A stretch of DNA of 64,000 nt from Mobula birostris. Taxonomy: Eukaryota. The position numbers were made by a program, and so were the translations under genes. Shown one piece after another: positions 1 through 64,000 of this stretch. Where the stretch lies: the NCBI RefSeq assembly GCF_030028105.1, contig NC_092384.1, positions 26,233,629-26,297,628 of the forward strand. Reading direction: 5' to 3'. The notes beneath the pieces are model-generated. The model saw nothing but the letters and a program-made list of their open reading frames with translations, was not told where the DNA came from and did no database searches. Position 1 is the first letter of the stretch. Each line of letters starts with the position of its first letter.

Positions 1-551
1 TGGGCCGAAGAGCCTGTCACTGTGCTGTGGTACACTATGATTCTGTAATCTACAGTCAGTTATAGATCTTTAAGAAAAAAAGTGTTTGATTTCAGAATAT
101 GCTGCCTTTGATAAGTCCAACATCTTGCTTCCACTCCGTGTTGCCCATGCAGTGATTTCCATACGGCTACAGAGATCCAGCACAGGCTCTTCAACTCATC
201 AAGCCTGACTGATCACCCCACATCATGTTTCCATCACCTAACCACCCTAATCCTACCATCACGCATTTTGTCCAAATTTCCATCAACCCACCTACACCTA
301 GATGAGGACAAGCAGATGTACAAGATGTTGGTTAGGCTACACGTGAACAATGAGTGCAGTTCTGATCACTACACTATTGAACCCCGGTGTTTGAATCCAT
401 CTTCATTATCCCTGATAACATCATCTAAATACCTAGTGGCATGGAGTCAATGTAATTATCGATATATCTCTGTCATTCCTTCAATATCAATCCCAGCTAA
501 AGGGAACATCTACCTCCTATAAAAGCTGAGAGACAGATATTCTATTCCCAC

Positions 552-1517
552 TGGTGCAGCTCAGGGGTGTGTGCTTAGCCCACTGCTCTACTCTCTATAT
601 ACACATGACTGTGTGGCTCGGCATAGCTCAAATACAATCCATAAATTTGCTGATGATACAACCATTGTTGGTAGAATCTCAGATGGAGACGAGAGGGTGT
701 ACAGGAGCGAGATATGCCAACCAGTGGAGTGGTGTCGCAGCAACAACCTTGTACTCAATGTCAGTAAAACAAAAGAGCTGATTGTGGACTTCAGGAAGGG
801 TAAGATGAAGGAACGCATACCAATCCTCATTGAGAGATCAGAAATGGAGAGAGTGAACAGTTTCAAGTTCCTGGGTGTCAAGATCTCTGAGGATCGAACC
901 TGATCCCAACATATTGATGCAGCTATAAAGAAGGCAAAACAGAAAATATACTTCATTAGGAATTTGAAGAGATTTGGTATGTCAACAAAAACACTTAAAA
1001 ACCTCTATAAATGTACCATGGAGAGCATTCTGACAGGCTGCATCACTGTCTGCTATGAGGAGGCCACTGCACAGGATTGAAAGAAGCTGCAGAGGGTTGT
1101 AGATTTAGTCAGCTTCATCTTGGGTACTAGCCTGCAAAGTACCCAGGACATCTTCAAGGAGCGGTGTCTCAGAAAGACAGCGTCCATTATTAACCTCCAG
1201 CACCCAGGACATGCCCTTTTCTCACTGTTACCATCAGGTAGGAGGTACAGAAGCCTGAAGGCACACACTCAGTGAGTCAGGAACAGCTTCTTCCCCTCTG
1301 CCATCCAGTTGCCAAATGGACATTGAACCTGTGAACACTACCTCACTTTTTAAAATACATATTATTTCTGTTTTTGCATTATTTTTAACCTATTCAATAT
1401 ATATATAGTAATTGATTGATTGATTCTCTTCTATATTATATATTGCATTGCACTGCTGTTGCTAAGTTAACAAATTTCACGACACATGCCAGTGATAATA
1501 AACTTGATTCTGATTAT
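552..1517 (+). mobile_element. 5'-truncated Rex1/Babar-like LINE (RT fragment plus (ATTCTG)n tail)
   Basis: ORF 571-903 reads LSPLLYSLYTHDC...KFADDTT...KTKELIVDFRK...SFKFLG; ends with AATAAA plus gattctgatt tail. Confidence 0.8.
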
Positions 1518-1679
1518 AAAACTGTTAAAACTATTACTAACTAAAGTATCAACTGTGGGAGCACTGAAATTGATATCATTTGTGACATCAGCACAAGAAC
1601 GTGAATGACCCCCAACCTCATCAACAATAGACACTCATTATTATCAGATATTGCAACAGCTCCAGAAAGGAGGAAGGAG

Positions 1680-2070
1680 ATGTTCATCATGATGTTCCCT
1701 GGAATGAAGGTCTTTAGTTATAAGGAAAGATTGGATAGGCTGGGATTGTCCTCACAGGAGTGCAGGAATCTGAAGGGTTTATAAAAGAATGAGGGGATGA
1801 GGTTGGGTACAGTCACAGCACATTTCCAGAGGTAGGGGACTCTAAAACTACAGGACATGGATTGAAGTGAGGAAGGAAAGGTTTAAAGGAGATCTGAGGA
1901 GAATGTTTTTCACACGGGGTGGTGAATATGTGGACGGGCCTCTGGAGAAGAAGGTAGAGATGGATGCAATCCCAGCATTCTTGAAGCATTTGGACAGGTT
2001 GATGTGTAGGACAGGATGAGGGCCAAAGTGTAGATGAATTTCTTGTCTGGCATGGACAACTTGGGTCAAC
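1680..2070 (+). mobile_element. Old CR1 LINE 3' fragment (mirror copy ~38460-38850)
   Basis: Degenerate CR1 3' motifs: ttataaggaaagattggataggctggg ... tttaaaggagatctgagg ... tttttcacac. Confidence 0.6.
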
Positions 2071-2387: not shown

Positions 2388-2669
2388 CTAGGAACTGTGA
2401 ACACAGGAGTTCAAAAAAGAATAGCAGCTCTCAGCAACCACCGACTGGGGAAGGAAAAAGTTCACTTTCACTTCATGAGCTGTTCCTTGCAGGTAAATGG
2501 AGATTATTAAATCAAAGTGATTTCTGAGATCCAACTTCAGCAGATGCGTTATACGCTGATGATAGAGAGAGTAGGGTTATTGCTCAGTGTATTAATAGAA
2601 ACAGATTATTTTTCTTGTGGTGGGGTGTTGCTGCCCTGCTGAGTGTTGTGCCATTATCCTGCAGGTATC

Positions 2670-2826
2670 ATGGTTAATGCCATGCTGCTCTACTGCTGTG
2701 CTCTACAGCTCATTCTCTGCTTCGGTGCCATCAGAGCTGAACTGGATTCCAACGCCATTAGAGATGTGACCACAAATGCCGACTTTACATCCCTGAGCAG
2801 GGGCAAGACCCTATTTTCTGCTGCAG
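2670..2826 (+). CDS. agrp: Agouti-related protein copy 1, coding exon 1 (signal peptide)
   Basis: MVNAMLLYCCALQLILCFGAIRA... hydrophobic signal; 157 nt; phase-1 donor gcag|GTGGGT. Confidence 0.88.
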
Positions 2827-3550
2827 GTGGGTATTAACCATCTCCATTTAATTCTGCACTCTCTGCATTAATCCTGGTCTGAGGCTCTCAGCGTGACTAA
2901 TTATCTACTGCTTCAGTCGCAGTTGACTGTTGCATTTTATCCAAGAATATTGAATGGATTTATGACTCCAGTGGGAGAGCGTGGTACAGGGTCCACATAG
3001 GAAACCTACAAAAATATATTTCACTGGAAGAAAAATAAGTGACCAGCTCTTGTTTAAAGTGAAGCCAATACTCTCATTCAATGTACATAGGCAGTTTGTT
3101 AGAGTAGTCTCTAATTAGCAATGTAGAACTCATTTTGGATATCCCTGACATTACACCCAGAACATACTTCTGTTGTGCTCTGTCACCTTTAGAAATAATT
3201 TACTCTTAAACCTCACTTTACCATTAAGTGAGTCTCCTGTATGGCTGAGAGTCTGTTGGAGATTGAGTGCCTTTCTATTGTCTCTTATTCTTTGTTCTTA
3301 CAGTTCACTCTGTCAGTTTTGTTTGTCAGTACTCACTTAATTCTTCGGTTCTTCTCCAAACTTCTGGGGAATGTTAATGTGGTAGAACACAAATCCTTTG
3401 AGAAAGAAAGAGAATGGTTTGTGCGGCAGCCTTTATTTTAGGTCAATATTATTGCCATCTACCAAGTCACCATTTCATGCACTGAAATTTAATGTTTGCA
3501 TGAACAACAGGATAGACATTTGACGAATTCTGTTAATGTTGTGAATTCAG

Positions 3551-3618
3551 GTCCACTGACTAAACCCACATTGGAAAAAGAACATCAAATGTCAGAAAAG
3601 ATTATGCTCAAATCTGAG
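3551..3618 (+). CDS. agrp: Agouti-related protein copy 1, coding exon 2
   Basis: ttcAG|gtcca...tctgag|GTAAAT; 68 nt; phases join exons 1 and 3 in frame (GPLTKPTLEKEHQMSEKIMLKSE). Confidence 0.8.
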
Positions 3619-4397
3619 GTAAATCCAGTTTTTATATAGTATCGTTCCAAAGGCAGAGTGACTGATATCCAGCAAACTGATTAAGTTTTAATTACATTTC
3701 AAATTTGACTTTTTATAACAAATATTGTAAAATATAATACGATTTAAAGCTGAAGCATCAGCAGTTCAATTAAATTCTGTTATTCACTGTTCTGGCCCAA
3801 CATTAGTACACAATCATCTGCTATTTAATATTTAGGATTCTTTAATATGAATTGTGCTTATTTAATATAAAATTGTTTCTTAGTTAAAATAAATGAAAAT
3901 TATGAATGAGGAAATATTCTCACACAGTTTTTAATCCCAACGTCACTCTGACATTGGGGTACCTTAGGTGTTTCTGCGATCATGTTCTGTCCTCTCCAGC
4001 ACCAGCAAGACCTGCATTTTTCAGCCTCAACTAATCTGTTATGAGGACATTTCTGTTGCCTTGTGTTTCTTAAAGCAGAGTAAGCTGGAGACATCTGCCT
4101 ATTGACAGGCTTAGCTCTGCTGAATGCCAAGACACCCTCCTTACCCGGGCTAGCCCAGGTTGGTTTAACCACTCCCTGACTTATGTATGGAAGAGGTAAT
4201 GCTGGTTTACATAGTCCCAGGGTTACAGCATTATATCTCCTTAAAGAACGAGGAGACCACTTGGCTCACAGGGTATATAGTTGGTAGTCCATGCTTAAAT
4301 GTTAAATGCGACTAGTTGTTCTTGTTGCAGAATTGGAGAAATTGAAAATGGTATGTGACATTTCATATTCTGTAAACTTTAACATTTTCCCTTACAG

Positions 4398-4586
4398 CTG
4401 ATGTTTGATGTAGTCGAGATGGATAGATCAGAGCATTCGCCCGGGAGATGCGTTCGACACCTAGAGTCCTGCTTTGGCCATGCTCTACCTTGCTGTGATC
4501 CATGCGCCATTTGTTACTGCAGATTCTTTAATGCTATTTGTTACTGCAGGAAAATCGGTAGTGACTGTGACCAGGGCAAGAACTAG
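4398..4586 (+). CDS. agrp: Agouti-related protein copy 1, coding exon 3 (10-Cys inhibitor cystine knot with RFF); total CDS 137 aa
   Basis: RCVRHLESCFGHALPCCDPCAICYCRFFNAICYCRKIGSDC has the AgRP C-x6-C-x6-CC spacing, the RFFN loop and a C-terminal extension; acceptor cttacAG; AATAAA at 4691-4696. Confidence 0.95.
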   Translation: MMFDVVEMDRSEHSPGRCVRHLESCFGHALPCCDPCAICYCRFFNAICYCRKIGSDCDQGKN

Positions 4587-6289
4587 CTTTGTACTTGTTC
4601 TCTCTGTTGACAACTTTTCTGTTTTAGATATAAACAGATTTATATTACGTTATGTTGCTTTCCATGTGCAACTTGTAAGTTTGCAGTTGAAATAAACATT
4701 TTACTTTGATGAGAAGGACAAATTTGCAGTGGAGTGCAGCCCAGCCCAGCTCAGCTCTTAATTTAGTGTGAGAGAGTCATAGAGCACTACAGCCTAGAAA
4801 TAGGCTCTTCAGCCCATCTAGTCCATGCCAAACTGGTCTTCTGCCTAGTCCCTAAACCATAGCCCTCTATACCCCTCTTATCCTTGTACCTGTGCAAACT
4901 TTTCTTAAACTCCTGTTGTGATAGGAAATAATGGATCTACCAGTAATTTGTCACAAATGCCCCAAAATTTCTAATGACAGAGAGAATTTGGTGATTTATT
5001 TGTCTAATTTAAAGCTCAATTTTTACCATACGGTTAAAGGGCGATTACAAAATTCCTTAAATTTGCTACCAGTTATTTGGGGGGAGGTGGAGGACTCTGT
5101 TACATTTTGTAGAATACAAATGTATTACACAGGAGTGTCTTTCTTTGCACTTTGAACAGAAACTTTAACCATGTCTACTTAAATAAACAATGTAATTTCA
5201 ATTCTGCAATATCGCACCAATTAAAAATTTAAATATTGTTCATCTTTAGTTGATAGCGATGACCTAGAGGGCACTCATGTTGCTGAAATATACTTCTGCT
5301 TGCGGAAGCTGCTTCTAGATTCTCAGTCTGGTACAAATTTAGGACCTGAGATTGATTATCTCATGGGTTTGGCATTACCGATTTTCAACCTGTTGAGTTC
5401 CTCCAGCCTGTTGTGAGTGGTGTTTTGACCCCAGCATCTGCAGATTATTTTGTGTTCTGAGGGAGAAAAGCCTGCTTGCATTTAACCTATCTATACCTTT
5501 CATAATTTTGTACACCTCTAGCAAATCCCCCCACATTCTCCTATGCTGCTAACTTATTCACTCTTTCCCTATAACTCATATATTACTTAGATTTATTAAT
5601 AACTTATAATTCCAGACAGGCCTTAAAGAACAACACAGGTTCAGAATTCATGTTGAAGAAGTACATTTATTTTCATTTGCATTTCACATGTTGATTTGCA
5701 CTTAGTTGTCAGCAATGGTGCTATCGATCCAGTCCCTCAGCTCCGTCACGCGGGCATAGACACCAGGAGTGCTGGTGGAGCAATAGCCACTGCCCCAGGA
5801 AACGATGCCAACCAAGTTCCAGACGTTGTCCTTCTGACAGACAAGTGGGTCGTCAGAGTCACCCTGTAAACGAGTCACAGCCTCAGACTTGGTCTCATTG
5901 CCTTTTTGCAACTTGAAAGAGGTTGAAGTACTTTGAAAAGGTTTCATACCATGCAAGACGAGGCACCAGCTGCCCCAGCGCAGATCATGACATCGGTGAC
6001 ACTGCTACCCCAGTAGTTCCTGCAGTTCACGTTGGAGAGGAGCGGAAGAGCAGCTTGCTGAAGTTGGTTAGGTCGCTCAGCAGCTGTGGAAATGTTAGAT
6101 GATACTTCAATCAGTTTTGCTTTATTTTTAAGGGTCATACTCCAATGAAAGTAAAAGGGTATATTTTCAGCCATTAGAAACCTTTTATAAACCTACTGAT
6201 TGACTATACCTCTTTCCGGCCTGTCTCCCTTTTCTCAGTTCTTGTGCTTCCACTGTATCTATTGCCAGGATAAGGCTTTTCTTTCCAGG

Positions 6290-7915
6290 ACAGGGAGGAG
6301 GTGAACGGCGAGGTGTAGCATTTCTGTTGCATGCAGGGATATGTGAGAGAGACTAGTGGGGAGGGCTGAATGGACAAAGGAATCATGGAGGGAGCAATCC
6401 CTATGAAACGCGGATAGTGGGGGAGGGGGGGTAAAGATGTGTTTGGTGCTAGGATCCCACTGAAGATGTGGAGAGTGGAGGGAAGGTAACGATGTGTTGG
6501 TGGTAGGATCTCTTTGCAGACGGCGGAAGTTGTGGAGAATGATGCGTTGGGTGCAGTGGCTCATGAGGTGACAGGTCAGGACAAGAGGAACTCTATCCCT
6601 GTTCAGGTGGCAGGAAGATGGGGTGGACGTGGATGTCCGGGAAATGGAGGAGATGCAGGTGAGGAAGAGAAACCCTGTCCTTTGTCCTTATCCCTGGGAC
6701 AGATGCGACAGAGGTGAAGGAACTGAGCAAAGGGAATGGCGTTTTTACAGGAGATCGGGTGGAAATAGTATCGTCAAAATAGCCGTGGGAATCACCAGGT
6801 TTATAAAAGATGTCAGTAGATAGTTGGTCTCCAGAGATGGAGACAGAGAGATCGAGAAAGGGGAAGGAGGTGTCAGAAATGGACCAAGTGAATTTAAGGG
6901 TAGGGTGGAAGTTGAAGGCAAAGTTTATGATATTGATGAGCTCAGCATGAAGGTGTGAAGCAGCATCTGTGCAGTTGTCAATGTAGTGCAGAAAGAATTG
7001 GGGAGTTTGACCAGAGAAGACTTGGAACATGGACCGCTCTACGCAGCCAGTGAAAAGGTAGGCGTAGCTGGGGCCCATACAGGTACTCACGGCTACCCCT
7101 AGAGTTTGGAAAAAGTGAGAGGGACCAAAGGAGAAATTGTTAAGGGTGGGGACCAGTTCTGCTAGACAAGAAGGTATTGATGGAGGGGAACTGGTTGGGT
7201 CTTTTGGAGGGAAAAATACAGAGAACTTTAAGGCCTTCTTGATGGGGGATAGAAAGTTATAGGGACTGGACATCCATGGTGAAAATGAGGTGGTCACGGC
7301 AGGGAATTGAACATTATTGAGGAGATCGCAAGCATGAAAAGTGTTGCTGTGTTGATCTGGGAAAGGACTGGACCAAGGGGGATATAATGGAGTTGAGGTA
7401 TGTGGACATGAGTTCAGTGGGGCAGGAGATGGCAGAGACAATGGTCTTACTCGTACAGTCACGTTTGTGGATCTTGGGTAGAAGGTAGAAACAAGCATTG
7501 CGGGTTAAGGAAACTATCAGTTTGGTGGCAGTGAATGTGAGATCAATGATGGCGACACTGAGGGTCCAGAATATGGTCCTTTTCAAGGAGGTGTCTTGAG
7601 AGTTTCCGACTGGTATCAGCAAGGTCGAGGTCAGTCTGCCACTCAGCAATAGCACCCCCTTTGTCTGCAGGTTTGCTGGTAAGGTTGTGGTTGGTGTGGA
7701 GAGAGTGGCAGGCAGTGCATTCAGAGGGAGTAAGGCTGGAGGAGGAGGAGAGGAGTGCTGAAATTGTGGCAGTTGATGTTTCATTGGGAATTACAGATGA
7801 AAAGATCTGGAGGTGGCAGAGAACCAGAGCGGGATGTCCAAGAGAAGGTGTAGGATTGGATATGGGAGGAGGGGCCATTGGTGCAGTGGACTGAGGGCCT
7901 GACAATGGAGGGGGC
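6290..7915 (-). mobile_element. Degenerate Penelope-like retroelement fragment in chymotrypsinogen A intron 5
   Basis: KPADKGGA, FYLLPKIHK, MGPSYAYLF, HYIDNC, FHPTLKFTWSIS, PFLDL: Penelope-type RT motifs, frameshifted. Confidence 0.85.
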
Positions 7916-7919
7916 AAAA

Positions 7920-9320
7920 CTCGTCCTACATTTGGGAAGGTGACAGTGAGAGAGCACTTAGGGACCAGTGACTATATTTCTAATAGTTATTAAAGGGTTA
8001 TGGAAAGGAACAGAACTGGTCCACAGGTTCAAGTTCTAAGCTGGGGCAAGGATAATTTTAACAGTATGAGACAGGAGGTTGCAACGATTGTTTGGGGTAG
8101 GTAGTTTGTTGGCACAGAGCCCACAGGTAAGTGGGAGTCTTTTAAAAGTGATCTAGTAAGATCTCAAAGCCTACATGTTCCTGTTGGAGCATAGGGCAAG
8201 GCAGGCAGGAGTACAGAACCTTGGACAATGAGGGATATTGAGGCTCTGACCCTGGAGAAAACGAGGCATAGGTTTGTACAAGCAGCTGAGATCAAGCAAT
8301 TCTCTGGAGGGATATAGGGCAAACAGGGGGCACGAGGGATTTTTGACAGAGAATATGAATAAAATTCTACACAGATTGTATGTATATTAACGTAGAAACG
8401 GAATAAGGCCCCTCAAAGATCACAAGGACATATCTTTGTGTGGAGCCACAGGAGGCAGGCATAGTCCTTAATGAATATCTCTCCTCTGTTATTTTTTAAC
8501 CACAGAGAGTTTTATGAATGGCAGGGCACTGGGGAGTGGTGTAGAGCAGAGTGCAAGTCACAGGTAGGTGAGGAGGTGAAGAAGGCTTTTGACACACTGG
8601 CCTTTGTCTCTCAGGCCACTGAGTAGAGAAGTTGGGAAGTCATGTCATGTTGTGGTTGTATTGGACGCTGGTAAGACTGCTCTTGGAATATTGTATTCAT
8701 TTTTGGTCGCCTTGTTGTAGTAAAGGTGTTGTTAGACTGGAAGAGGTATAAAAAAGATTTATAAGGATGCTGCCAGGATTTGAATAACTGAATTATAGGG
8801 AGAGGTTGAAGAAGCTAGGACTTTATTCCTTAGAGCATTAAGGACTGAAGATGATCTTATAGAGAGGTATAAAATCATGAGTGGCAAAGATAGGGTGAAT
8901 GTATTCCGTCTTTTTCCTCAGAGTTGGGACATCAAGACCAAGAGGGCATAGGTTTAAGGTGAGAGTGGAAAGATTTCAGAGAAACTTCAGGGACAACCTT
9001 TTTTGTTCCACAAAGGGTGGTATCTATGCAGAATCAGCTACTAGAAGAAGTGGTAAGGCAAATATAATGACAAACTTTTTAAAGACAGTTGGACAGGTAC
9101 ATGGATTGGAAAGGATTAGAAAGTTATACACATGGATTAAAGAGGTTTTGAAGGTTATGGGACCATGGACTGGAAAGGTTTAGAAGGTTCTTGGTCCATG
9201 GATCAGAAAGGTTTAGAAAGTTATGGGCCAAACATTGGCAAATGGCACTAAATTGGATGGGGTATCTTAGTCTGCTTGGACCAATTGGGCAGAAGGACCC
9301 ATTTCCAATCTATATGACAC
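7920..9320 (+). mobile_element. Degraded CR1 LINE fragments in intron 5 (longer version 27600-30250 on - in copy B; 45430-46520 in copy C)
   Basis: CR1 ORF2/3' motifs (gagcacttagggaccagtgac; RPRGHRFKVR; ggtaagactgctcttggaatattg). Confidence 0.7.
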
Positions 9321-10191
9321 TGTGAACACCCTATCACTGGATCAGTTGTAGAAGCCCACAATATCCCTCTGATGAACAGAATTATCCTGTTCCTTGACCA
9401 GAGAAACTTGTTGCAGCCATGAAGTATTATTCATAGCATAACCTTCCAGATTGCCAATCATCTTGGGAATCTATCCACTGCTCCCTGTCAGGGTAAGGGT
9501 ACAAAGGCACAGAGCTCGGAACTGCAACACTGTAATTTGTAAAGTTTTGAACTGACGTACGGTAAGCACGAGTCCTTCCCCATCCCGTTGTGACACACAT
9601 CATGCCAGCAGGGTAGTTATCAGATACAGCGGCGAGACAGACTGGCGACACATGACTGTTGAACTGAACGGGGGTTGCAAGCTTCACCACAGAAACATCA
9701 TAATTAATGGTGGATGGGTTCCACTTGGGGTGTGTAATGACCTGTAACAGAGAGAACATGGATGATGGCTGTGCCTAGTACTCATCTTTCACAGTTGGCA
9801 CTTGCTTGAGACCGATAACTTCAGACTGTCCTGGATTTCATGTCAATGCAGCTGCACTCATGAATGGGGAATTGCTTATTCAAAATAGAATTCAGAAGTC
9901 CTTCATTAGAAAACAAAGTCAGCAATTTAAAGAAAAATTGATAGACTTACAAGCTGGAATTGGAAATAAGTGGCTGTATTCTGTGGTTTACCATCACACT
10001 GGTGCTGTTGTCTTGTATAAAACATCTTCAGTTTTTCCTTTCTGAATTTGATTAACCTTTTTGAGATAATTAGTTTTTTTAGTTGCCCAGACACTTCAAT
10101 CAAGCCAGCAGTTCATGTGCTCATTTCTAAACTCTATATGAGCAAAACAGCAATCACCTCAGCACAATAGACAACAATTTCTCATTGCATG

Positions 10192-11478
10192 TACATCTGT
10201 CTCAATTGCTAATGAACTTCTTGCAAACTACTCAACACCAGGACAGAACGGTGGTCAGAAGACAAAAAGGAGATGCAAAAATCATTCAGAAGTGTCAGCA
10301 ATCAATCCCAAATCATTGACTCAAAATGGCTCTGCTTTGCAACGGATTAAGCAATCGTTGGTAATCTGTTGATACACCAACCTTATCTAGGACAAGGAGA
10401 CAAAGGACGAATCATGTAGAGAAAAGGGTGCCAGTCCAGCTACCAGGCCAGGGAGGTTCAAACGTTACCATGTGTGCAGCCATAGAGACACTGGCATTCT
10501 GGCATACAGCCCAAAGACTGGACCTTATACCACCCCACACATTATCAAATTCCCTGATGGGCTTTACAGGCAACCCTTAGTGAACAGGACGCCAGGATCA
10601 ATGGCCACTCTATGTCATCATGTGGGACAATATATCTTTCCACCATTCATCTGCAGTGACTGGCTGGTTTCAGGCTTATCTATTCATGTTCGTTAAACTC
10701 TTTTCACTGCACTCCCCATTCCTCAACTCTCCTGGGTTTTTCCCTTCCTGCAGATGGCAGGCGTTATTACGACCAAAGGCTGCTGATGGACAGTATGATT
10801 GAGGATCACCATGCAGACGTCCAGGGCTGGATTGGGCATCCCGGGGGTGCATTGCTAGGGAGCACATTTGATGTGATGTTGATGAAAACATGATGCCAAA
10901 CCAGGGACAAAATAGATCAGAGATGACCATTATTGTACGGCATTTCTGTTATCAGAGATGAATGATTTTTCTCTTCTAAAGGTGTGGTCAATTTTGTCTT
11001 TGACTTTCATGTAACAACAGTTGAGATTCCAGACTGTGTGTGTAGGTTTGCATTCTTGCCTCTCATCCTGTTGATCCTTCAAAGTTCTTACTCAAGATTG
11101 GAGTTGTAATCATTGTATTTACAATAATAGACAAAGTGTCTTGATCTCTGGCGTTATACAGAGTATGCACCAAGCATCACAATGTATGACTGACTACACT
11201 GATCATGTTATGCCTCTTTGAGAAGGGTGGCCAGTGTCTTGCCAGTGATTACCCAGTGATCACTGATATGTGTTAGTGATGTAATGCTGTGTGCTACTGT
11301 TTTAATTGAATTATTCACTTTTGCTGCAAATATTTATTGTTTTGACTTGCTGAGTGTAATTTGCAGTGAGGATGAGGAGTTTTGCACAATGGATTAGTCC
11401 TTTGCAGCCTGTGTTGACTGTTTAGAGAATGTGGCTACTGTTTTGAACAGTGTGGTTAAGCGACCGAGAAAAACTGTA
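10192..11478 (+). mobile_element. Old Tc1/IS630-superfamily DNA transposon remnant in intron 4
   Basis: Remnant translation SNVTMCAAI..GPY..; HSPFLN..FF..W; QGWI..CIARE.I.CDVDE. Right end gagaaaaactg-TA and left end TA-catctgtctcaattgct resemble terminal inverted repeats. Mirror copy in D at 55847-60281. Confidence 0.6.
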
Positions 11479-12593
11479 ATAGGACTAATAGTATGTTCTC
11501 TTTTAATTTGATCTAACATGGCCATAATACCAAGCATTAATGACTTAAGTTAGTTCTCACTTGATATAAGTGAGATAGGAATAAGACTTTAGTTTATTTT
11601 GTTGGTTCCAAGCTATAAGTATTCAACAGTCTTGAGGCTGACTTCATTTTGTTCTGGCTGAGAGCCTAATGATTTGTCAGCATTGACATTTCCAGAGAGG
11701 TCATGCATTCCAACGTGAAATATCTAATCTGTTTGCTTCATGTTTGTACTTATGACTGAGTTTGTCTTTTCACTTACTACACTGCAAGTAACATTTATTG
11801 CTGGAAGGCCCATGTGTCAGGGTATTGGGGCTAGTGCAGAGGAAAATTAATCTGATTAAAACTGGGGCCCCAACGCCTGAGGGAGGTGACATGTAATAAT
11901 CTTTTATCATCTTTGTCAGCACCTGAAATAATCCTTGCTTTTGCTTGTTATTGATATCTTGTGATTCTATTATTGGTGGTATGAAGTTTATCATGGTGAG
12001 GCATATTCATATTGGAGATTGAAACCACTTCCGGCATTGGACACCCCTTACTAAGATCCTGTGTCCTGTCTGATTGGCATCCATCTCTGCACATCATTTT
12101 GGATCCTAACAGTACTGTAGCCTGAATTTGACCTGAATTTAAACAAATTCCTAGTTTTACAGGGAAATACGTACCTTAGCAATGGACATGGATTTCTGGC
12201 TGGCTTCAGCATTTGAGCTTTTGTCATGGGCACCAACAATAGCAAAGTCGTTCGTACTGTATGTGGCAAAAGAAAAACAAAAGCAGTGACAGAGTTTGCT
12301 TGTTGCAAGATACCAGCAACTCCAAGCTTCATCAGTGGTAGGGTGGGTGGGGGTTGTGGAGGGAAAATTGTACTTTCCAGCCAACGATTTCCCAAACTAT
12401 TCATACCAGGATCTTCCCTCGTTAGGTCAATGTTCATGCCCACAAGTGCAATTTTTCTTTGCCTCATATATCACTTTGAACAAAAATATCAGTTAAAGCT
12501 GCATCATCCCTCAGGAATTAGAGAATGATTCACCAGCACATTTCTTTCTCTCTTTGTAGGTGCTAAGACTTACCTCACGCCACAATGTGCAGC

Positions 12594-52300: not shown

Positions 52301-54520
52301 ATCTCTATATAATTTACTATGAAATTATCCAATTAAAAGAAATTGGCTTAAATTAAAAAGTCAATTTTATATGTCTGGAGATAAAAGTAACAAGCTATTA
52401 GCATCTCAACTTAAAGCAGTTAGAGCTAAAAGACAAATTTTAAAAATTCGTAAGAGAGATGGTAGTTTAGCTTGTAATTATGAAGATATTAATAAATTTT
52501 TTCTAGACTATTACAGTGAACCTTATAAATCTGTTTCCAGCTGACCCTTCTAATACGTATGCCTTTTTACAAAAGATTGATTTTCCTATAATATCTGTTG
52601 AAGATCAGCAAATTCTTGATGCTCCTTTTACTGAAAGAGAAATTCAGAAAGCTATTCTTTCAATGCAATCTGGTAAAGCTCCTGGATTAGATGGTTTTAC
52701 TGCAGGATTTTATAAAAAATTTGAATATTTGCTTACTCCTTATATGTTGGAAATGCTTAAAGATTCTTTTATGTCAGGAGAGTTACCTTCTACATTTTAT
52801 GAAGCTTCTATTTCCTTAATCCTTAAGAAAAATAAAGATCCTACTGATTGTGCTTCATATAGACCTATTTCATTATTAAATGCGGATGCCAAACTTCTTT
52901 CAAAAATAATGGCTAATCGGATGGAAACTAAACTAGCTAAAATTATTCCTCAGGATCAAACGGGTTTTATAAAAGGCCGTTATTCTTTTTCTAATACTCG
53001 GAGATTGTTAAATATTATATACTCTTCCATCTCTAAGACTCCCCAATGTGTTGTTTCTCTAGATGCTGAAGAGGCATTTGATAGAGTTGAATGGAAAGAT
53101 CTATTTAAAGTTTTAGAGAAATTTGGCTTTGGTACTAATTTTAATAAATGGATTAGATTGATATATAAAAGCCCTATTGCCACTGTTATCACTAATAATT
53201 GTAGATCCCCCTTTTTCCAACTTTCTCGGGGTACGAGACAAGGATGTCCGTTAAGTTCTCTGTTATTTAACTTGTGTTGGAACCCTTGGCTATTGCACTT
53301 CGTGAAGCTAAAAATATTCAAGGTATTTCTATAAATGGGACTATTCGTAAGATCTCCCTTTATGCAGATGATCTTTTGGTTTATATTTCGACTCTGGAAG
53401 AATCTATTCCTAGCTTATTGAAATTATTAAATGAATTTGGATTGTTTTCAGGATATAATTTAAACCTGCATAAAAGTTAATTATTTCCTTTAAATGATTC
53501 TGCTTCTATATATGATAATATTACTTGAAAAGTTACGGATTCTTGAGAAATATTTAGGTATTACCATTGCTAAAAATTATGGAGACCTTTATAGAGCTAA
53601 TTTAGCTCCCTTAGTGGATTTTATGAAGCAATTTCTTTTTAGGTGGAATCCACTTACACTTTCCTTAGTAGGTCAAATTCATGACGTTAAAATGATGATT
53701 TTTCCAAAATTTTTATATGTATTTCAAAACATTCCTATTTTTCTAACTAAGAAGTTTTTTGATCAAGTTGACTCTATTATTTCATCTTTTGTTTGGAATA
53801 ATAAAAGACCAAGAATTGGAAAATGTCATTTACAAAAATTAAAAAAGAATGGAGGTCTTAATTTGCCTAATTTAAGAATGTATTATTGGGCGGTTAATAT
53901 ACGTTATGCGTGTTCTTTGTTGTATTGGACCGATAAAGAGGAATGACCATCTTGGGTTGACTTGGAATTGAAAACTGTGAAACAGTTTCATTTAGCTTCG
54001 TTATTAGGAGCTCCTTTACCTGTACAATTAGCCAAAATTTCTATTCTAAATATAAATCCTATGATTAATCAATCATTACGAATTTGGTATCAGTTTCGTA
54101 AGTTTTTTAATCTTAAAAAAATTAACCTTCTTAGTTTAATTTATCGAAACTATTTATTTAAACCTTCACTTAATGATCCTACCTTTTCTCTTTGGAGGAA
54201 TAAAGGAATTTTTTCCTTTATGGACTTGTTTCAAAAAGGTCGATTGACGGCCTTTGAGAAATTAGTAACTAAATACTCTCTCTCATATTCACATTTTTTG
54301 CAATAACATCAGGTCAGACATTTTGTACAAAAATATTTAAATAATTTTCCATATATACAAGTTTCTGACTTATTAGATATTATTTTAAAAATGAACCCTT
54401 TAGTGAAAGGCTTTATTGAGAAAATTTATAATTTACTATTACAACAGGACAATTATCCTTCACTTAAGATCAAGCAAGATTGGGAAAGAGAGCTTAATAT
54501 GACCTTGATAACAGAGGAGA
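49301..54520 (+). mobile_element. L1-clade LINE with 5' end, ORF1 and degenerate ORF2, 3'-truncated; forms the centre of palindrome 2
   Basis: ORF1-like IERAHR..RPILVNFLRF (50086-50502); endonuclease QETH, GGDFN, YSRIDY; RT KAPGLDG, YRPISLLN, RGTRQGCPLS, LYADD. Confidence 0.93.
49685..49969 (-). mobile_element. Short CR1 3' fragment nested in L1 ORF1; same family as 42527-44393
   Basis: Near-identical to 42541-42817. Confidence 0.9.
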
Positions 54521-56102
54521 GGACTCATGATCCATTGACGTTTGATAACTTCCTTGTTTCCTTTTACCCAATTTGCAATATGGAGTCACTGTCAACTTTC
54601 AATAAAACTACTTCCATATGGTGGAGAAAAACTTAAGCTGTTTTTATGAGCATCCTTTTTCCTCGTGTAACAGACTGACTCTGGTCGGCATTTCTGCGGC
54701 GGTTCCTTGATCAATGAAAACTGGGTTGTCGCCGCTGCACACTGTGAAGTGAGGTAAGTCTTAACACCTACAAAGAGAGAAAGAAATGTGCGGTGAATCA
54801 TTCTCTAATTCCTGAGGGATGATGTAGCTTTAACTGATATTTTTGTTCAAAGTGATATATGAGGCAAAGAAAAATTGCTCTTGTGGGCATGAACATTGAC
54901 CTAACGAGGGAAGATCCTTGCATGAATAGTTTGGGAAATCGTTGACTGGAAAGTACAATTTTCCCTCCACAACCCCCACTCACCCCGACCACTGATGAAG
55001 CTTGGAGTTGCTGGTATCTTGCAACAAGCAAACTCTGTCACTGCTTTTGTTTTTCTTTTGTCACATACAGTACGAACGACTTTGCTATTGTTGGTGGCCA
55101 TGACAAAAGCTCAAAAGCTGAAGCCAGCCAGAAATCCATGTCCATTGCTAAGGTACATTGCTCCCTGTAAAACTAGGAATTTGTTTAAATTCAGGTCAAA
55201 TTTGGGCTACAGTACTGTTAGGATCCAAAATGATGTGCAGAGATGGATGCCATACAGACAGGACACAGGATCTTAGTAAGGGGTGTCCAACACCAAAAGT
55301 GGTTTCAATCTCCAATATGAATATGCCTCGCCATGATAAACTTCATAGCACCAATAATAGAATCACTAGATATTGATAACAAGCAAGGCAAGAATTATTT
55401 CAGGTGCTGACAAAGATGATAAAAGATTATTACACGTCACTTCCCTCAGGCATTGGGGCCCCAGTTTTAATCAGATTAATTTTCCTCTGCACTAGCCCCA
55501 ATACCCTGACACATGGGCCTTCCAGCAATAAATGTTACTTGCAGTGTAGTAAGTGAAAAGACAAACTCAGTCATAAGTACAAACATGAAGCAAACAGATT
55601 AGACATTTCACGTTGGAATGCATGACTCTCTGGAAATGTCAATGCTGACAAATCATTAGGCTCACAGCCAGAACAAAATGAGGTCAGTCTCAAGACTGTT
55701 GAATACTTATAGCTTGGAACCAACAAAATAAACTAAAGTCTTATTCCTATCTCACTTATATCAAGTGAGAGCTAACTTAAGTCATTAATGCTTGGTATTA
55801 TGGCCATTTTAGATCAAATTAAAAGAGAACATACTATTAGCCCTATTACAGTTTTTCTCAGCCGCTTAACGACACAGTTCAAAACAGTAGCCACATTCTC
55901 TAAACAGTTGACACAGGCTGCAAAAGACTAATCCATTGTGCGAAACTCCTCATCCTCACTGCAAATTACACTCAGCAAGTCAAAACAATAAATATTTGCA
56001 GCAAAAGTGAATAATTCAATTAAAACAGTAGCACACAGCATTACATCACTAACATATATCAGTGATCACTGGGTAATCACTGGCAACACACTGGCCATCC
56101 TT

Positions 56103-59100
56103 ATCTTTCTTTTCTTTTTAAATCTTTTTATTAATTTTTCAAAATTATAAACTCAATAACAAAGTTGGTACAAAGAGATTGGAATAATATTCATCAGCAT
56201 ATATAAAATGAATTTTAAGTAACATAGATATAAAAGACTTCCAAACTCATAATGAAATTAATCATTAAAAAAAAGAAATAAAAAGAAAAAATATATATAA
56301 ACAAAAAAAACCCAAAAGAAAAAGAGAAAAAAAAACCCCAAAAAAAACAAAACAGGGCTAGACCAACAGCTTGTATCAGACACGTTCAATAATGTTGTTA
56401 ACTCTGCTCTTCTCATCATATAATTTAAGTTTAGAAAAAAAATTCGGAATGGTCAGATTGCATCATATGAAAACGTTGCATAAGAGGTTTCCAAGTTTCT
56501 TCAAATTTAACCAAAGGGTCAAAAATATCACTAATTTTTTCTAAATTTAAACTTAATATGGTTTGAGAAAACCATTGGAATGTAATTGGAGGATTAGTTT
56601 CCTTCCAGTTCAACAAAATAGATCTTCTCACCATTAAAGTAACAAAAGCTATCATTCGACAGGCTGAAAAAGACAAAGATCTATGTTCTACCATTGGCAA
56701 TCCAAAGATTGCCGTAATAGGATGAGGTTTTAAATCGAAGCATAGAACTGTTGAAATAATATCAAAAATGTCTTTCCAATATTTTTTCCAAAAGAGGACA
56801 GGACCAAAACATAGGAGTTAAAGAAGCCACTTCAGAGTGACATCTATCACAAGTAGGGTTTATATGGGAATAAAAACGAGCTAGTTTATCTTTGGACATA
56901 TGAGCTCTGTGTACTACTTTAAATTGTATTAATGTATGTTTAGCAGATATAGAAGAAGTACTAACTAATTGAAAATTGTTTTCCCATTTCTCTATAGGTA
57001 GGGAAAGTTGAAGTTCCCTTTCCCATTCATTTTTGATTTTATCAGATATATCTGGCTGTAATTTCATAATTATATCATAAATTACTGCTATTAATCCCTT
57101 CTGCAAAGGATTAAAACCTAAAATTTTATCAAAAATGCCAGAAGGATTTGAAGTCCGAAAGGTCGGCAACCTAGTATTTAAAAAATTTCTTATTTGTAGG
57201 TATCTTAAAAAAATGGGATCTAGGCAAATCAAATTTCTCAGATAATTGCTCAAAAGCAGTTATCCAGAAATAGATCACGAAAACATATTATACCTTTCGT
57301 TTTCCATATCAGAAAGGCTTGGCCCATTACTGAGGGTTGGAAAAAGAAATTAAATATAATAGGGCTTGATAACATAAATTCATTCAGGCCAAAAAATTTA
57401 TGAAATTGAAACCATATTCACAATGTATGTTTAACTATAGGGTTAAAAATTTGTTTATTCAATTTAGATAGTGCAAAAGGCAGTGAAGTTCCTAAAATGG
57501 AAGCTAAAGAAAACCCTTGTACAGAATGGCCTTCAAGGTTTACCCAATATGGGCTTGGAGTTGTATTCCAATCTTGTGTCCAAAATATTAAATATCCGAT
57601 ACTAATTGCCCAGTAGTAAAATCTTAGAATAGGCAATGCCAAACCACCTTAGGTTTCTGTAAGTATTTAGGTTTCTGTAAGTATTTTTTACTTAATCTGG
57701 GATTTCAATTTTGCCATATATAAGAGGAAATTTTAGAGTCAATAGTATCAAAAAAAGATTTAGGAATAAAAATCGGTATCACTTGAAATAAATAGAAAAA
57801 TTTGGGTAAAATAATCATTTTAATAGCATTAATACGGCCAATCAGTGATAGAGACAAAGGGGACCATTTAGTAATCAGTTGTTTAACCTGATTAATTAAT
57901 GGTAAAAGGTTGAAATTGAATAGATCCTTATGTCTCTTAGTAATTTTAACTCCCAAATAAGTAAAATAGTCAGTAATCACTCTAAATGGAGAGTTTCTAT
58001 AAATGGGAACCTGCATATTTAATGCAAAGAGTTCACTCTTACCTTGGTTCAATTTATAACCAGAAAAACTACTAAACTGAGCAAGCAAAGTTAATACTGC
58101 CGGAATAGATTTTCCTTGGTTAGAAATATATAATAGTTAATCAGCTGCATCTCGTGATAAGTTATGAGTCTCATTTCCACGGGTAATGCCAAATATATTA
58201 GGGGAGTCACAAATGCCAAAAGCTAGCGGTTCCAAGGCAATATCAAATAGTAGTGGACTAAGAGGGCAACCCTGCCTAGTACCACAGAATAAATGAAAAA
58301 AAGGGGATCTTTGATTGTTAGTAAATACCGAGGCCAAAGGAGTAAAATATATCAGTTTAATCCAGGAAATGAATATCGGACTAAAATTAAATTTCTCAAG
58401 GGTATTGAATAAATATATCCATTCAACTCTATCAAAAGCTTTCTCAGCATCCAATAAAATAACACATTCTGGAATTTTGGGTGAAAGTGTATAAACAATA
58501 TTCATTAATCTCCTAATATTAAAAAAAGAGTAACGGTTTTTAATAAATCCAGTCTGATCAGCAGAAATAATTTGGGGTAATACATTCTTCAATCTCGTTG
58601 CCAATATTTTAGAAAGAATCTTAGAATCAACATTCAACAGAGATATATGCCTATAAGATGCACATTCAGTAGGATCCTTATCTTTTTAAAGAATTAGGGA
58701 AATAGAAGCTCGATAAAAAGATTGTGGTAATTTACCTATTGACAATGCATCCCTAAAAACACTACATAGCCAAGGAGTCAGTGTAGTTGAGGAAAATTTT
58801 TAAAATTCTACAGTAAATCCATCTGAGCCAGATGCTTTACCTGAGTTCATTGAAAAAATAGCATTCTTTATTTCCTCTACTGTAATAGGTACATCTAGTT
58901 TTGAACGTTCATTAGATGATAATTTTGGAATATTCAGTTTCTTAAAAAATTCATGCATTATAGTGGAGTCATCAGGAAATTCTGATTGATATAGGGAGGT
59001 ATAAAATTCTTGAAAGGATTTATTAATCTCATCATGGTCAACTGTCAAAGTGCCATCTTGTTCACGAATCTTAAGAATCTGTCGTTTAACCAATGCCAAT

Positions 59101-59245
59101 TTCAATTGATTAGCTAAAAGTTTCCCAGTTTTATCACCATGTATATAAAACTGACTCTTAGTTTTGATTGATTGACTTTCAATCGAAGATGATAATAAGA
59201 GATTATGTTCCATTTGAAGTTCAGCTCTTTGTTTATAAAGTTCTA
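56103..59245 (-). mobile_element. 5'-truncated L1-clade LINE with 10-bp target-site duplication, nested in the intron-4 DNA transposon of copy D
   Basis: GGCCATCCTT at 56093-56102 and 59246-59255; RT motifs DAEKAFDRVEW and GTRQGCPLSP; A-rich tail. Confidence 0.93.
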
Positions 59246-60620
59246 GGCCATCCTTCTCAAAGCGGCATAAGATGATCAGTGTAGTCAGTCGTACAGTGTG
59301 ATGCTTGGTGCATACTATGTATAACGCCAGAGATCAGGACACTTTGTCTATCATCGTAAATACAATGATTACAACTCCAATCTTCAGTAAGAACTTTGAA
59401 GGATCAACAGGATGAGATGCAAGAATGCAAACCTACACACACAGTCTGGAATCTCAACTGTCATTACATGAAAGTCAAAGACAAAGTTGCCCACACCTTC
59501 AGGAGAACAAAGTCATTCATCTCTGATAACAGAAATGCCGTACAATAATGGTCATCTCTGATCTATTTTGTCCCCGGTTTGGCCTCATGTTTTCATCAAT
59601 ATCACATCGATTGTGCTCCCTAGCAATGCACCCCCGGGATGCCAAATCCAGCCCTGGACGTCTGCATGGTGATCCGCAATCATACTGTCCATCAGCGGCC
59701 TTTGGTCGGAATAACGCCTGCAGGAAGGTAAAAACCCAGTAGGGTTGAGGAATGGGGAGTGCAGTGAAAAGAGTTTCACAGACATGGATAGATAAGCCTG
59801 AAACCAGCCAGTCACTGCAGATGAATGGTGGAAAGATATATTGTCCCACGTGATGACATAGAGTGGCCATTGATCCTGGTGTCCTGCTCACTAAGGGTTG
59901 CCTGTAAAGCCCATCGAGGAATTTGATAATGTGTGGGTCGGTATAAGGTCCAGTCTTTCAGATGTATGCCTGAATGTCAGTGTCTGATATGGCTGCACAC
60001 TTGGTAACATTTAAACCTCTCTGGCCTGGTAGCTGGACTGGCACCCTTTTCTCTACATGATTCATCCTTTGTCTCCTTGTCCTAGATAAGGTTAGTGTAT
60101 CAACAGATTACCAACGATTGCTTAATCCGTTGCAAAGTAGAGCAATTTTGAGTCAATGATTTGGGATTGATTGCTGACACTTCTGAATGATTTTTGCATC
60201 TTCTTTTTGTCTTCCGACCATCGTTGGGTCCTGGTGTCGAGTGGTTTGCAAGAAGTTCATTAGCAATTGAGACAGATGTACATGCAATGAGAAGTGGTTG
60301 TCTATTGTGCTGAGGTGATTGCTGTTTTGCTCATATAGAGTTTAGAAATGAGCACATGAACTGCTGGCTTGATCGAACTGTCTGGGCAACTAAAAAAAAC
60401 CAATTATCTCAAAAAAGTTAGTAGATTCAGAAAGGAAAAACTGAAGATGTTTTATACAAGACGACAGCAGCAGTGTAATGGTAAACCACAGGATGCAGCC
60501 ACTTATTTCCACTTCCAGCTTGTAAGTCTATCTGTTTTTCTTCAAATTGCTGACTTTATTTTTTCTAATGAAGGGCTTTTGAATTCTATTTTTAATAAGC
60601 AATTAAATTAAATTAAGCAA

Positions 60621-62165
60621 CTGCCAGCTCCAGATCTTTCATCTCCAATTCCCAACGAAACATCAACCGCCACAATTTCAGCACTCCTCTCCTCCTCCTC
60701 CAGCCTTACTCCCTCTGAATGCACTGCCCGCCACTCTCTCCACACCAATCACAACCTTACCAGCAAACCTGCAGACAAAGGGGGTGCTATTGCTGAGTGG
60801 CGGACTGACTTTGACCTTGCTGACGCCAGTCGGAAACTCTCAAGACACCTCCTTGAAAAGGACCATATTCTGGACCCTCAGTGTCGCCATCATTGATCTC
60901 ATCAACTTTGTGACCTCACATTCACTGCCACCAAACTCATAGTTTCCTTAACCCGCAATGCTTGTTTCTACCTTCTACCCAAGATCCACAAACATGACTG
61001 TACGAGCAAGACCATTGTCTCTGCCATCTCCTGCCCCACTGAACTCATGTCCACATACCTCAACTCCATTATATCCCCCTTGGTTCAGTCCTTTCCCAGA
61101 TCAACACAGCAACACTTCTCATGCTTGCGATCTCCTCAATAATGTTCAATTCCCTGCCCTGACCGCCTCATTTTCACCATAGATGTCCAGTCCCTATAAA
61201 TTTCTATCCCCATCAAGAAGGCCTTAAAGTTCTCTGTATTTTTTCCCTCCAAAAGACCCAACCAGTTCCCCTCCACCAATACCCTCTTGTCTGGCAGAAC
61301 TGGTCCTCACCCTTAACAATTCCTCCTTTGGTCTCTCTCACTTTTTCCAAACCCTCAGAGTAGCCGTGGTTACCTGTATGGGCCCCAGCTACGCCTACCT
61401 TTTCAGTGGCTGCGTAGAGCAGTCCACGTTCCAAGCCTGCTCTGGTAAAACTCCCCAACTCTTTCTGCACTACATTGACAACTGCATAGATGCTGCTTCA
61501 CACCTTCATGCTGAGCTCATCAATATCATAAACTTTGCCTTTAACTTCCACCCTACCCTTAAATTCACTTGGTCCATTTCTGACACCTCCCTCCCCTTTC
61601 TCGATCTCTCTGTCTCCATCTCTGGAGATCAACTATCTACTGACATCTTTTATGAACCTGGTGATTCCCACGGCTATCTTGACGATACTATTTCCACCCG
61701 ATCTCCTGTAAAAACGCCATTCCCTTTGCTCAGTTCCTTCACCTCTGTCGCATCTGTCCCAGGGATAAGGATAAAGAACGGTTTCTCTTCCTCACCTGCA
61801 TCTCCTCCATTTCCCGGACATCCACGTCCACCCCATCTTCCTGTCACCTGAACAGGGATAGAGTTCCTCTTGTCCTGACCTGTCACCTCATGAGCCACTG
61901 CACCCAACGCATCATTCTCCACAAATTCCGCCGTCTGCAAAGAGATCCTACCACCAACACATCGTTACCTTCCCTCCACTCTCCACACCTTCAGTGGGAT
62001 CCTAGCACCAAACACATCTTTACCCCGCCTCCCCCACTATCCGCGTTTCATAGGGATTGCTCCCTCCATGATTCCTTTGTCCATTCAGCCCTCCCCACTA
62101 GTCTCTCTCACATATCCCTGCATGCAACAGAAATGCTACACCTCGCCGTTCACCTCCTCCCTGTC
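60621..62165 (+). mobile_element. Penelope-like fragment, intron 5 of copy D
   Basis: Inverted match to 6290-7820. Confidence 0.8.
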
Positions 62166-63283
62166 CTGGAAAGAAAAGCCTTATCCTGGCAATAGATACA
62201 GTGGAAGCACAAGAACTGAGAAAAGGGAGACAGGCCGGAAAGAGGTATAGTCAATCAGTAGGTTTATAAAAGTTTTCTAATAGCTGAAAATATACCCTTT
62301 AACTTTCATTGGAATATGACCCTTAAAAAAAAAATAAAGCAAAACTGATTGAAGTATCATCTAACGTTTCCACAGCTGCTGAGCGACCTAACAAACTTCA
62401 GCAAGCTGCTCTTCCTCTCCTCTCCAACGTGAACTGCAGGAACTACTGGGGTAGCAGTGTCACCGATGTCATGATCTGCGCTGGGGCAGCTGGTGCCTCG
62501 TCTTGCATGGTATGAAACCTTTTCAAAGTACTTCAACCTCTTTCAAGTTGCAAAAAGGCAATGAGACCAAGTCTGAGGCTGTGACTCGTTTACAGGGTGA
62601 CTCTGGCGGCCCACTTGTCTGTCAGAAGGACAACGTCTGGAACTTGGTTGGCATCGTTTCCTGGGGCAGTGGCTATTGCTCCACCAGCACTCCTGGTGTC
62701 TATGCCCGCGTGACGGAGCTGAGGGACTGGATCGATAGCACCATTGCTGACAACTAAGTGCAAAACAACATGTGAAATACAAATGAAAATAAATGGACTT
62801 CTTCAACATGAATTCTGAACCTGTGTTGTACTTTAAGGCCTGTCTGGAAATATAAGTTATTAATAAATCTAAGTAATATATGAGTTATAGGGAAAGGGTG
62901 AATAAGTTAGCAGCATAGGAGAATGTGGGGGGATTTGCTAGAGATGTACAAAATTATGAAAGATATAGATAGGTTAAATGCAAGCAGGCTTTTCTCCCTC
63001 AGGTTGGGTGAGACAAGAACTGGAGGTGATAGGCTGAGGGTGAAAGGTGAAATATTTAAGGGGGCAGTTTTTCACACACAGTGGTGAGAGTGTGTAATGA
63101 GCTGCCAGAGGAAGTGGTGGGGAAATGAGGGGGAATTTCTTCAATCAGAGAGGGGACTGAGTGTGGAACAAACAGAATTCAAGAGAAATTTGGATAAGTA
63201 CATGAATAGTGGAGATACGAATTGCGTTGGTTCAGGTGCAGGTCAATGGGACTAGGTAAATTACTAGCTCGTCATGGTCTAGA

Positions 63284-64000
63284 TGGGCCGAAGAGCCTGT
63301 CTCTAAGCTGTGGTACACTATGACTCTGTAATCTACAGTCAATTATAGATCCTTAAGAAAAAAAGTGTTTGATTTCAGAATATGCTGCCTTTGATAAGTC
63401 CAACATCTTGCTTCCACTCCGTGTTGCCCAGGCAGTGATTTCCATACGGCTACAGAGATCCAGCACAGGCTCTTCAACTCATCAAGCCTGGCTGATCACC
63501 CCACATCATGTTTCCATCACCTATCCACACCAATCCTACCATCACCCATTTTGTCCAAATTTCCATCAACCCACCTATACCTAGATGAGGACAAGCAGAT
63601 GTACAAGATGTTGGTTAGGCTACACGTGAATAATGAGTGCAGTTCTGATCACTACGCTATTGAACCCCGGTGTTTGAATCCATCTTCATTATCCCTGATA
63701 ACATCATCTGAATACCTAGTGGCATGGAGTCAATGTAATTATCGATATATCTCTGTCATTCCTTCAATATCAATCCCAGCTAAAGGGAACATCTACCTCC
63801 TATAAAAGCTGGGAGACAGATATTCTATCCCCAGTGGTGCAGCTCAGGGGTGTGTGCTTAGCCCACTGCTCTCTCTCTATATACACATGACTGTGTGGCT
63901 AGGCATAGCTCAAATACAATCCATGAATTTGCTGATGATACAACCATTGTTGGTAGAATCTCAGATGGAGACGAGAGGGTGTACAGGAGCGAGATATGCC
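63284..64000 (+). repeat. Direct copy of window positions 1-718 (AgRP upstream region); also inverted copy of ~39820-40538
   Basis: ORF 63551-63805 is nearly identical to 268-522; the same Rex1-like insertion starts at ~63835. Confidence 0.95.

Follow-up and report, generated by a model that had tools for sequence, protein, structure and literature searches.

The window analysed here is a 64,000-nucleotide stretch of the Mobula birostris contig NC_092384.1 (positions 26,233,629 to 26,297,628, forward strand), which carries interleaved copies of two genes, the neuropeptide gene AgRP and a chymotrypsinogen. Motif scans and tblastn searches place the units along it in the order AgRP1 (plus strand), chymotrypsinogen A (minus), B (plus), AgRP2 (minus), C (minus), D (plus) and then the 5' flank of a third AgRP (plus); the protease copies were located by tblastn with ray chymotrypsinogens. 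This is the orientation series that an earlier note had read from the letters alone, and self-BLAST of the window, the kind of self-comparison which that note proposed, bears it out. Neighbouring repeat blocks are mutually inverted at 88–98% identity, every adjacent pair of proteases is inverted, and 46,503 of the 64,000 bases are duplicated (segments of at least 200 bp and at least 88% identity), with many high-scoring segment pairs (HSPs) at E=0, far beyond what chance would give. The local amplification is confirmed as genuine, and its inverted arms are interlocked. Both ends of the window fall within the array, so that neither end of the array itself is covered, and an Rfam search of the window gave no matches.

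AgRP and chymotrypsinogen copies

AgRP1 (2670..4586, plus strand; coding exons 2670–2826, 3551–3618 and 4398–4586) and AgRP2 (33446..37859, minus strand; exons 37859–37703, 36977–36910 and 33634–33446) each form an open frame of 137 codons with intact splice sites, in agreement with the earlier note. The third unit is represented by its 5' flank (63038..64000, plus strand), which is 95.9–96.9% identical to the other two flanks; its start codon is expected near 65,950, beyond the window. In PDB the last AgRP exon matches AgRP (E=9e-16) better than ASIP (3e-9), and its top protein matches are chondrichthyan AgRP, the best being that of Mobula hypostoma (92% over the last exon). Both copies keep ten cysteines, the C-x6-C-x6-CC knot defined for the A1-type agouti family (PMC3397983) and the RFF loop of AgRP (PMC9599618). 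They are closest to ray and shark AgRP and not of the teleost A2 type (PMC3397983); rather than ancient paralogues like the teleost A2 genes, the manta copies are local and nearly identical. A 20-nt mini-exon at 4331–4350, proposed by eye, was rejected because the flanking exons join in frame without it.

The two copies differ at the predicted convertase site, for which we take R85-x-x-R88, after the human sequence, to be the cleavage point. The changes R88H and R91G in AgRP1 remove basic residues of this site; AgRP2 keeps the predicted site and carries A121S in the active loop. In a 17-row alignment (the two last exons of the window plus 15 references hand-picked from 85 matches), R88 and R91 are kept in 16 rows, the sole exception being AgRP1, and A121 is likewise kept in 16, the sole exception being AgRP2. 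AgRP is processed to its mature form by PC1/3 (PMC6928319). Relative to AgRP of sawfish, skate and sharks, the middle exon (3551–3618 and 36910–36977) is short by six residues, a feature common to both copies and M. hypostoma. The M. hypostoma protein (P0001) carries knot changes of its own (A112T and N120K) and heads a six-sequence cluster in which other Mobula paralogues may be concealed.

The last protease exon matches chymotrypsin in PDB, with ray chymotrypsinogens also among the best matches, and the copies have the seven-exon layout of chymotrypsinogen B (peptidase S1A), although none in the window is intact. Copy A (5702..15001, minus strand) has all seven exons, with exon 3 interrupted and GDSGG changed to GDSDD. 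In B (22188..32329, plus strand) the 3' end of exon 2 is replaced by a Tc1/Sleeping Beauty-type remnant (22416..23664, plus strand; PF01498 at E=1.8e-11, and PF25787), and exon 3 reads HFRGSSL in place of HFCGGSL, a loss of a cysteine that is common to C. Only exons 3–6 are left in C (41037..48773, minus strand), which has lost exons 1, 2 and 7, and D (54674..62757, plus strand) retains exons 3, 4, 6 and 7, having lost exons 1, 2 and 5; the exon lost from C encodes the catalytic Ser, in the case of exon 7, and exon 5, lost from D, encodes the catalytic Asp. A complete seven-exon frame with the His/Asp/Ser triad and GDSGGP is present in none of the four copies, and no stop or frameshift was found in the 17 copies of exons 3–7 that were translated. 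The lesions are structural rather than stop codons, and they are disabling in all four copies. The earlier claim that every protease had decayed therefore stands as far as the damage goes; for A, loss of function is read from the lost conserved motif, whose glycines we presume to be important for activity, and NCBI models this copy as an open protein of 286 residues (P0109). This Mobula birostris model is copy A letter for letter, lesions included, and a second model from the same species, P0101, is stitched from D exons plus intron and retroelement sequence used as exons.

The interruption of A exon 3 (12594..12956) replaced ~12 nt with ~360 nt, of which 346 bp are 99.7% identical to sequence upstream of A at 15398–15742, the remainder being short filler. 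The insert differs from A's own upstream sequence, 2.8 kb away, at a single position in 346 bp, compared with 96.2% identity to the B counterpart, which marks it as a young templated insertion and, apparently, a trace of repair that long postdates the array. Exon 7 of C was removed by a ~490-bp deletion with its edge at 40785, filled by a 200-bp Penelope-like fragment (40782..40993), and this event is also later than the array. Another 200-bp insertion (21979–22178) lies in the 5' leader of B, directly upstream of the start codon, and is missing from A. Divergence over protease exons 3–7 is 1.6–3.1%, below the overall 3.8–4.3% between arms, and exon 5 is almost identical in A, B and C; this could be due either to conversion from an intact donor or to a period of constraint.

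Junctions and palindrome centres

Junction R (5380..5460) has its break at 5456/5457, where a CR1-type long interspersed nuclear element (LINE) relic is cut at residue 531 of its reverse transcriptase (RT) and joined to a piece of ~70 nt. A second copy, in reverse orientation, lies at 32570..32650 (break 32574/32575). The relic ends at RT residue 531 in both A (5459) and B (32572), whereas it is intact from the D 3' flank into the third AgRP flank (62916..63250, plus strand), running unbroken over 63002/63003 in one HSP (62911–63081, RT residues 502–560), and D matches A up to the final base of the cut relic. Because the LINE is continuous between D and the third AgRP flank and cut in A and B, a protease(+) followed by an AgRP(+) is probably the ancestral order, and 5456/5457 (equivalent to 32575/32574) is probably both a derived inversion junction and a founding junction of the array. 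It had been overlooked in the earlier note. We also considered 63002/63038 as the founding junction and rejected it because the LINE is continuous there. Crossing over between two copies of the LINE might likewise leave a seamless element, but the match of D to A up to the last base favours a break. The ~70-nt piece at R resembles the end of a Penelope-like element in one of three targets (score 51, compared with 38 for the best of 500 shuffles), and gave no alignment above shuffles with the other two.

Arms A and B face each other across a spacer of 3.66 kb (16660..20320) that is single-copy within the window. A LINE relic is continuous between A and the spacer but broken off on the B side, and we therefore place the second derived junction, L, at ~20321. 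Together, R and L bound an inverted middle copy, A, so that the locus shows the two inversion junctions that characterize an inverted triplication. No homology across R or L is visible within the window. The spacer end beside L (19290–20320) resembles, by eye, a long terminal repeat relic (a purine tract followed by TGTTACA, minus strand).

The centre of the C/D palindrome is occupied by an element that we take from its motifs to be of L1/Tx1 type (49298..54524, plus strand), intact at its 5' end at 49298 and truncated at 54524, at the junction with D. Starting from a centre of the A/B kind, a single deletion of ~10 kb (3.1 + 3.7 + 3.4 kb) would account for the loss of exons 1–2 from both C and D. 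Among the junctions that the earlier note had named, 16659/20321 and ~54524 are real rearrangements, whereas 40785 is the edge of the later deletion in C and 49298 is an ordinary 5' insertion point of the L1.

A Penelope-like retroelement (33679..36142) with 667-bp inverted ends (97.5% identical) is present in the last intron of AgRP2 only; its GIY-YIG frame matches PF01541 with 22.7 bits against a cut-off of 22.6, and it has an RT-like frame with no Pfam match. Penelope-like pieces adjoin two rearrangement junctions (5380–5456 and 40782–40993) as well as sitting in this AgRP2 intron, and they are common across the window. A young LINE private to C (42527..44392, minus strand) retains an open RT frame of 606 residues (PF00078, E=1.9e-33), and a second piece of the same family, a 285-bp 3' part at 96.8% identity, lies at 49685–49969 in ORF1 of the central L1-type element. 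D contains a second L1-type insert at ~56106–59246. In intron 5, a minisatellite of 33-bp units at the end of a LINE has 3.9 copies in A (9100–9227), 6.9 in B (27697–27919) and 4.2 in C (46297–46433).

Divergence, conversion and the fate of AgRP

The four arms differ by 3.8–4.3% in a star-like pattern (2,874 four-way columns). These distances come from a BLAST projection; a four-way MAFFT alignment was used for indel positions only, and its distances for B (12%) were dropped because B is misaligned at ~30031–31021, which inflates them. Non-CpG sites that divide the arms two against two number 25, compared with 1.5 expected by homoplasy, and they are split 10/9/6 over all three topologies. This conflicting support suggests that patchy gene conversion has mixed the arms. 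B and C, which surround AgRP2, have in common a 1.08-kb deletion in intron 4 (26320..26332 in B, ~47823 in C; not in A or D) and three substitutions in exon 3. AgRP1 and AgRP2 are identical over 462 bp (2519..2980), covering the first coding exon plus intron on either side, which has p ~5e-7 at the background of 3.08% before correcting for the choice of the longest run, and we interpret this as a gene-conversion tract. Further upstream, the 5' flanks of copies 1 and 2 also appear homogenised (1..520), differing at 5 of 520 positions, compared with 16 of 500 relative to copy 3.

The earlier note had called the amplification recent. Against this, AgRP1 and AgRP2 differ at 9 residues, while M. 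hypostoma AgRP is 9 residues away from AgRP1 and 6 from AgRP2 (AgRP2 and Pristis AgRP differ at 31); the amplification does not look recent because the distance between the two copies is about that of either to the M. hypostoma protein, and the arms stand 3.8–4.3% apart. The split between M. hypostoma and manta is put at ~20 million years ago (bioRxiv 10.64898/2026.10.27.761883, citing Poortvliet 2015). If the M. hypostoma protein is a fair yardstick, the amplification would be about the age of the genus radiation, in the order of 10–25 million years. Absolute dating with an epaulette shark rate gave 14–28 million generations and was dropped as implausibly old for the genus, and relative dating was used in its place.

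The earlier note had also viewed AgRP as the retained cargo of the array, and a selective reading of this kind holds that extra AgRP was kept, either for dose or as a divergent, uncleaved AgRP1, while the proteases were dispensable. Two open AgRP frames with intact splice sites and cysteine knots, the flank of a third AgRP and damage to all four proteases fit this, as does the near-identity of promoter and first coding exon between the copies (4 of 527 positions differ). However, the identical tract includes introns and is explained by conversion. Of the 411 coding bases, 12 differ between AgRP1 and AgRP2, 9 nonsynonymously and 3 synonymously, giving a ratio of nonsynonymous to synonymous change (pN/pS, as dN/dS) of 0.87, and coding divergence (2.9%) is the same as that of the flanks (3.1%), with 12 differences observed against 12.7 predicted from the flanks. 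In neutral simulations of one AgRP copy, using the substitution and indel rates of the flanks, the frame and splice sites were retained in 55% of 20,000 runs, and all ten cysteines along with them in 39%; the corresponding survival for the larger protease coding sequence is roughly 21%, before counting its larger intron target. Taking M. hypostoma and Pristis as outgroups assigns six of the nine amino-acid changes to AgRP1 and two to AgRP2, with one ambiguous. The AgRP1 changes cluster at residues 70–91, which could be taken in favour of selection, yet they include the loss of residues kept in 16 of the 17 aligned sequences. Because coding divergence equals that of the flanks, an open frame survives neutrally in 0.55 of runs and AgRP1 has lost its arginines R88 and R91, the selective reading fails here, and we regard it as possible but unlikely. 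The additional AgRP copy thus resembles a passenger under drift and the adaptive claim is unsupported by the sequence, with AgRP2 the better candidate for a working gene within the window and AgRP1 apparently drifting.

Proposed history and alternatives

On balance we favour a history in which an ancient same-strand neighbourhood of chymotrypsinogen B followed by AgRP underwent a fixed, germline segmental amplification in Mobula, in the order of 10–25 million years ago, followed by largely neutral decay. In the first step, two template switches would have produced an inverted triplication of the form protease(+), AgRP(+), R, protease(−), spacer, L, protease(+), AgRP(+), in which R leads out of the AgRP 3' flank back into reversed protease and L out of the spacer into forward protease; two such switches are known to give junctions of the R and L type in inverted triplications (PMC11293582, PMC10766183). 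AgRP would have been duplicated because it lies in the loop between the arms. Unequal exchange between direct repeats could then have given several units of protease(+), AgRP, protease(−) and spacer, and recombination between the inverted arms B and C may have flipped AgRP2. A deletion of ~10 kb, running from within an L1 in intron 2 of C as far as intron 2 of D, would have taken the C/D centre together with exons 1–2 of both copies, and patchy conversion between arms would have continued while each protease gained a lesion of its own. Inversion of the spacer, deletion of the centre and conversion of the arms are documented fates of palindromes (PMC8327919). The inverted protease arms are probably the product of the first event and the cause of the later flip and conversion. 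The suggestion that inverted protease repeats drove the amplification would thus probably hold for these later steps; it does not hold for the origin, the arms being of one age and the founding junctions lying outside protease–protease homology.

Several observations weigh against this history or limit it. The ancestral continuations of R and L lie outside the window, and since the window contains no end of the array, the first two steps are inseparable from successive fold-backs. The informative sites do not sort into AC|BD and then AB|CD, as one clean flip predicts. The age rests on one M. hypostoma protein, itself possibly a paralogue. With regard to neutral decay, the dN/dS is built on 12 changes and has low power, AgRP2 has 2–3 amino-acid changes where 4.7 are expected (p 0.15–0.31), which is non-significant and in the direction of constraint, and neither copy has lost any of the ten cysteines or RFF (neutral p 0.39 for each). 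Finally, a contig shared by AgRP and chymotrypsinogen in other fishes, described below, differs from adjacency.

The same order of units could be produced by successive fold-back doublings of a breakage-fusion-bridge type, in which a block of protease(+), AgRP(+), protease(−) is mirrored first at the 3.7-kb spacer and then at the L1. The window fits this series (block, spacer, inverted block, L1, block) equally well, with a single-copy loop at each centre (3.7 and 5.2 kb). However, fold-backs would make A and B, and C and D, sister copies, whereas no split has fewer sites behind it than AB|CD (9 of 35), and the only shared deletion unites B with C. Two independent fold-backs would also have to be fixed within a chromosome arm, and we consider this explanation unlikely. 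It is somewhat more improbable that the array is a much older batoid structure kept alike by concerted evolution, such that the 4% divergence dates the last conversion and not the origin. Conversion is demonstrated here, and in a thorny skate model (P0116) chymotrypsinogen is preceded by a diverged second copy of the first AgRP coding exon. Set against these points, homology between the units takes in introns, flanks and relics of old transposons, with a uniform 3–5% divergence that extends as far as the sharp junctions, the six-residue loss in the Mobula copies is not seen in sawfish or skate AgRP, and the skate case could be independent. As to an assembly artefact in which two haplotypes (an outcome the earlier note had named as refuting its reading) or fold-back reads were joined, mis-assembly is generally frequent in palindromic regions. 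Nevertheless the ~4% between arms is ~20 times the shark nucleotide diversity of 0.002 (PMC10587355), every protease copy has private insertions or deletions, the window contains no N, and four copies exceed what two haplotypes could supply, all of which makes an artefact very unlikely.

The architecture resembles that of DUP-TRP/INV-DUP (duplication–triplication/inverted–duplication) rearrangements (PMC11293582) and origin-dependent inverted-repeat amplification (ODIRA; PMC10766183) in its two inversion junctions, inverted middle copy, direct duplication of the loop and nearby templated insertion. Unlike those, the manta array is fixed and old, has more than three copies and has loops of 3.7 and 5.7 kb, and no pre-existing pair of inverted repeats is visible at the founding junctions within the window. 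The human CTRB1 and CTRB2 genes form an inverted pair with a 16.6-kb inversion (PMC6145291), and they share with the manta copies their family, opposite transcription, ~97% similarity and inversion between arms. The human pair is functional, however, and AgRP is not described between its arms in the available part of that source, whereas the manta has at least four copies, all damaged; the two probably arose independently. Primate X and Y palindromes (PMC8327919) likewise show conversion between arms, inversion of the spacer and deletions of spacer and inner arms, but their arms are less than 0.2% apart and preserved by selection, while the manta arms are 4% apart, interlocked and decaying. 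With ~96% identity and broken genes, the manta array falls outside the X/Y type, which has arms above 99% and intact genes.

The earlier note had set the locus against single-copy AgRP in tetrapods and the teleost agrp2, a frame that is off the mark for a cartilaginous fish, in which AgRP and chymotrypsinogen already share a chromosome. By eye, the longest contig given for the matches to either gene has the same length in all five chondrichthyans for which both match lists give one (Pristis, Heterodontus, Narcine, Amblyraja and Heptranchias), and in five of eight teleosts, the exceptions being Boreogadus, Oreochromis and Scleropages. These matches point to an old linkage of the two genes on one chromosome, in the sense of a shared contig, with adjacency not implied. 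In Amblyraja radiata, the first ~56 residues of P0116 correspond to a diverged AgRP first coding exon, with ~7 differences from the skate AgRP P0008, followed by chymotrypsinogen from exon 2 onward. Either this is a real chimera with a swapped signal peptide, or the model runs across a protease and a partial duplicate of AgRP next to it. The AgRP–chymotrypsinogen neighbourhood may have been duplicated more than once among batoids. A search for homologues of the first AgRP coding exon gave two proteins among five candidates and missed the known skate chimera, and is hence uninformative. In the little skate two agouti-type targets are described, one of them ASIP (PMC3397983). The literature searched, which excludes most subscription papers, contained no report of this locus, of tandem AgRP in cartilaginous fish or of AgRP–chymotrypsinogen synteny, and the main text of the Mobula genome preprint, taken apart from its supplements, has neither 'agouti' nor 'chymotryps'. 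The type of rearrangement is thus known, and the cargo is unusual.

The public gene models P0109 and P0101 rest on damaged protease copies. The locus records how a germline inverted triplication ages, through flip, centre deletion, conversion and templated insertion, and it offers a natural experiment on the dose and the processing of AgRP, the predicted cleavage site being absent from one copy. We think it improbable that mobulids have at least three AgRP genes with an extra copy both expressed and selected (for dose, or as a convertase-resistant pro-AgRP1 of changed potency or range) and have lost all the chymotrypsinogen B genes that flank them. If this were true, amplification of an appetite peptide and loss of a digestive protease would be linked to the giant filter-feeding rays.

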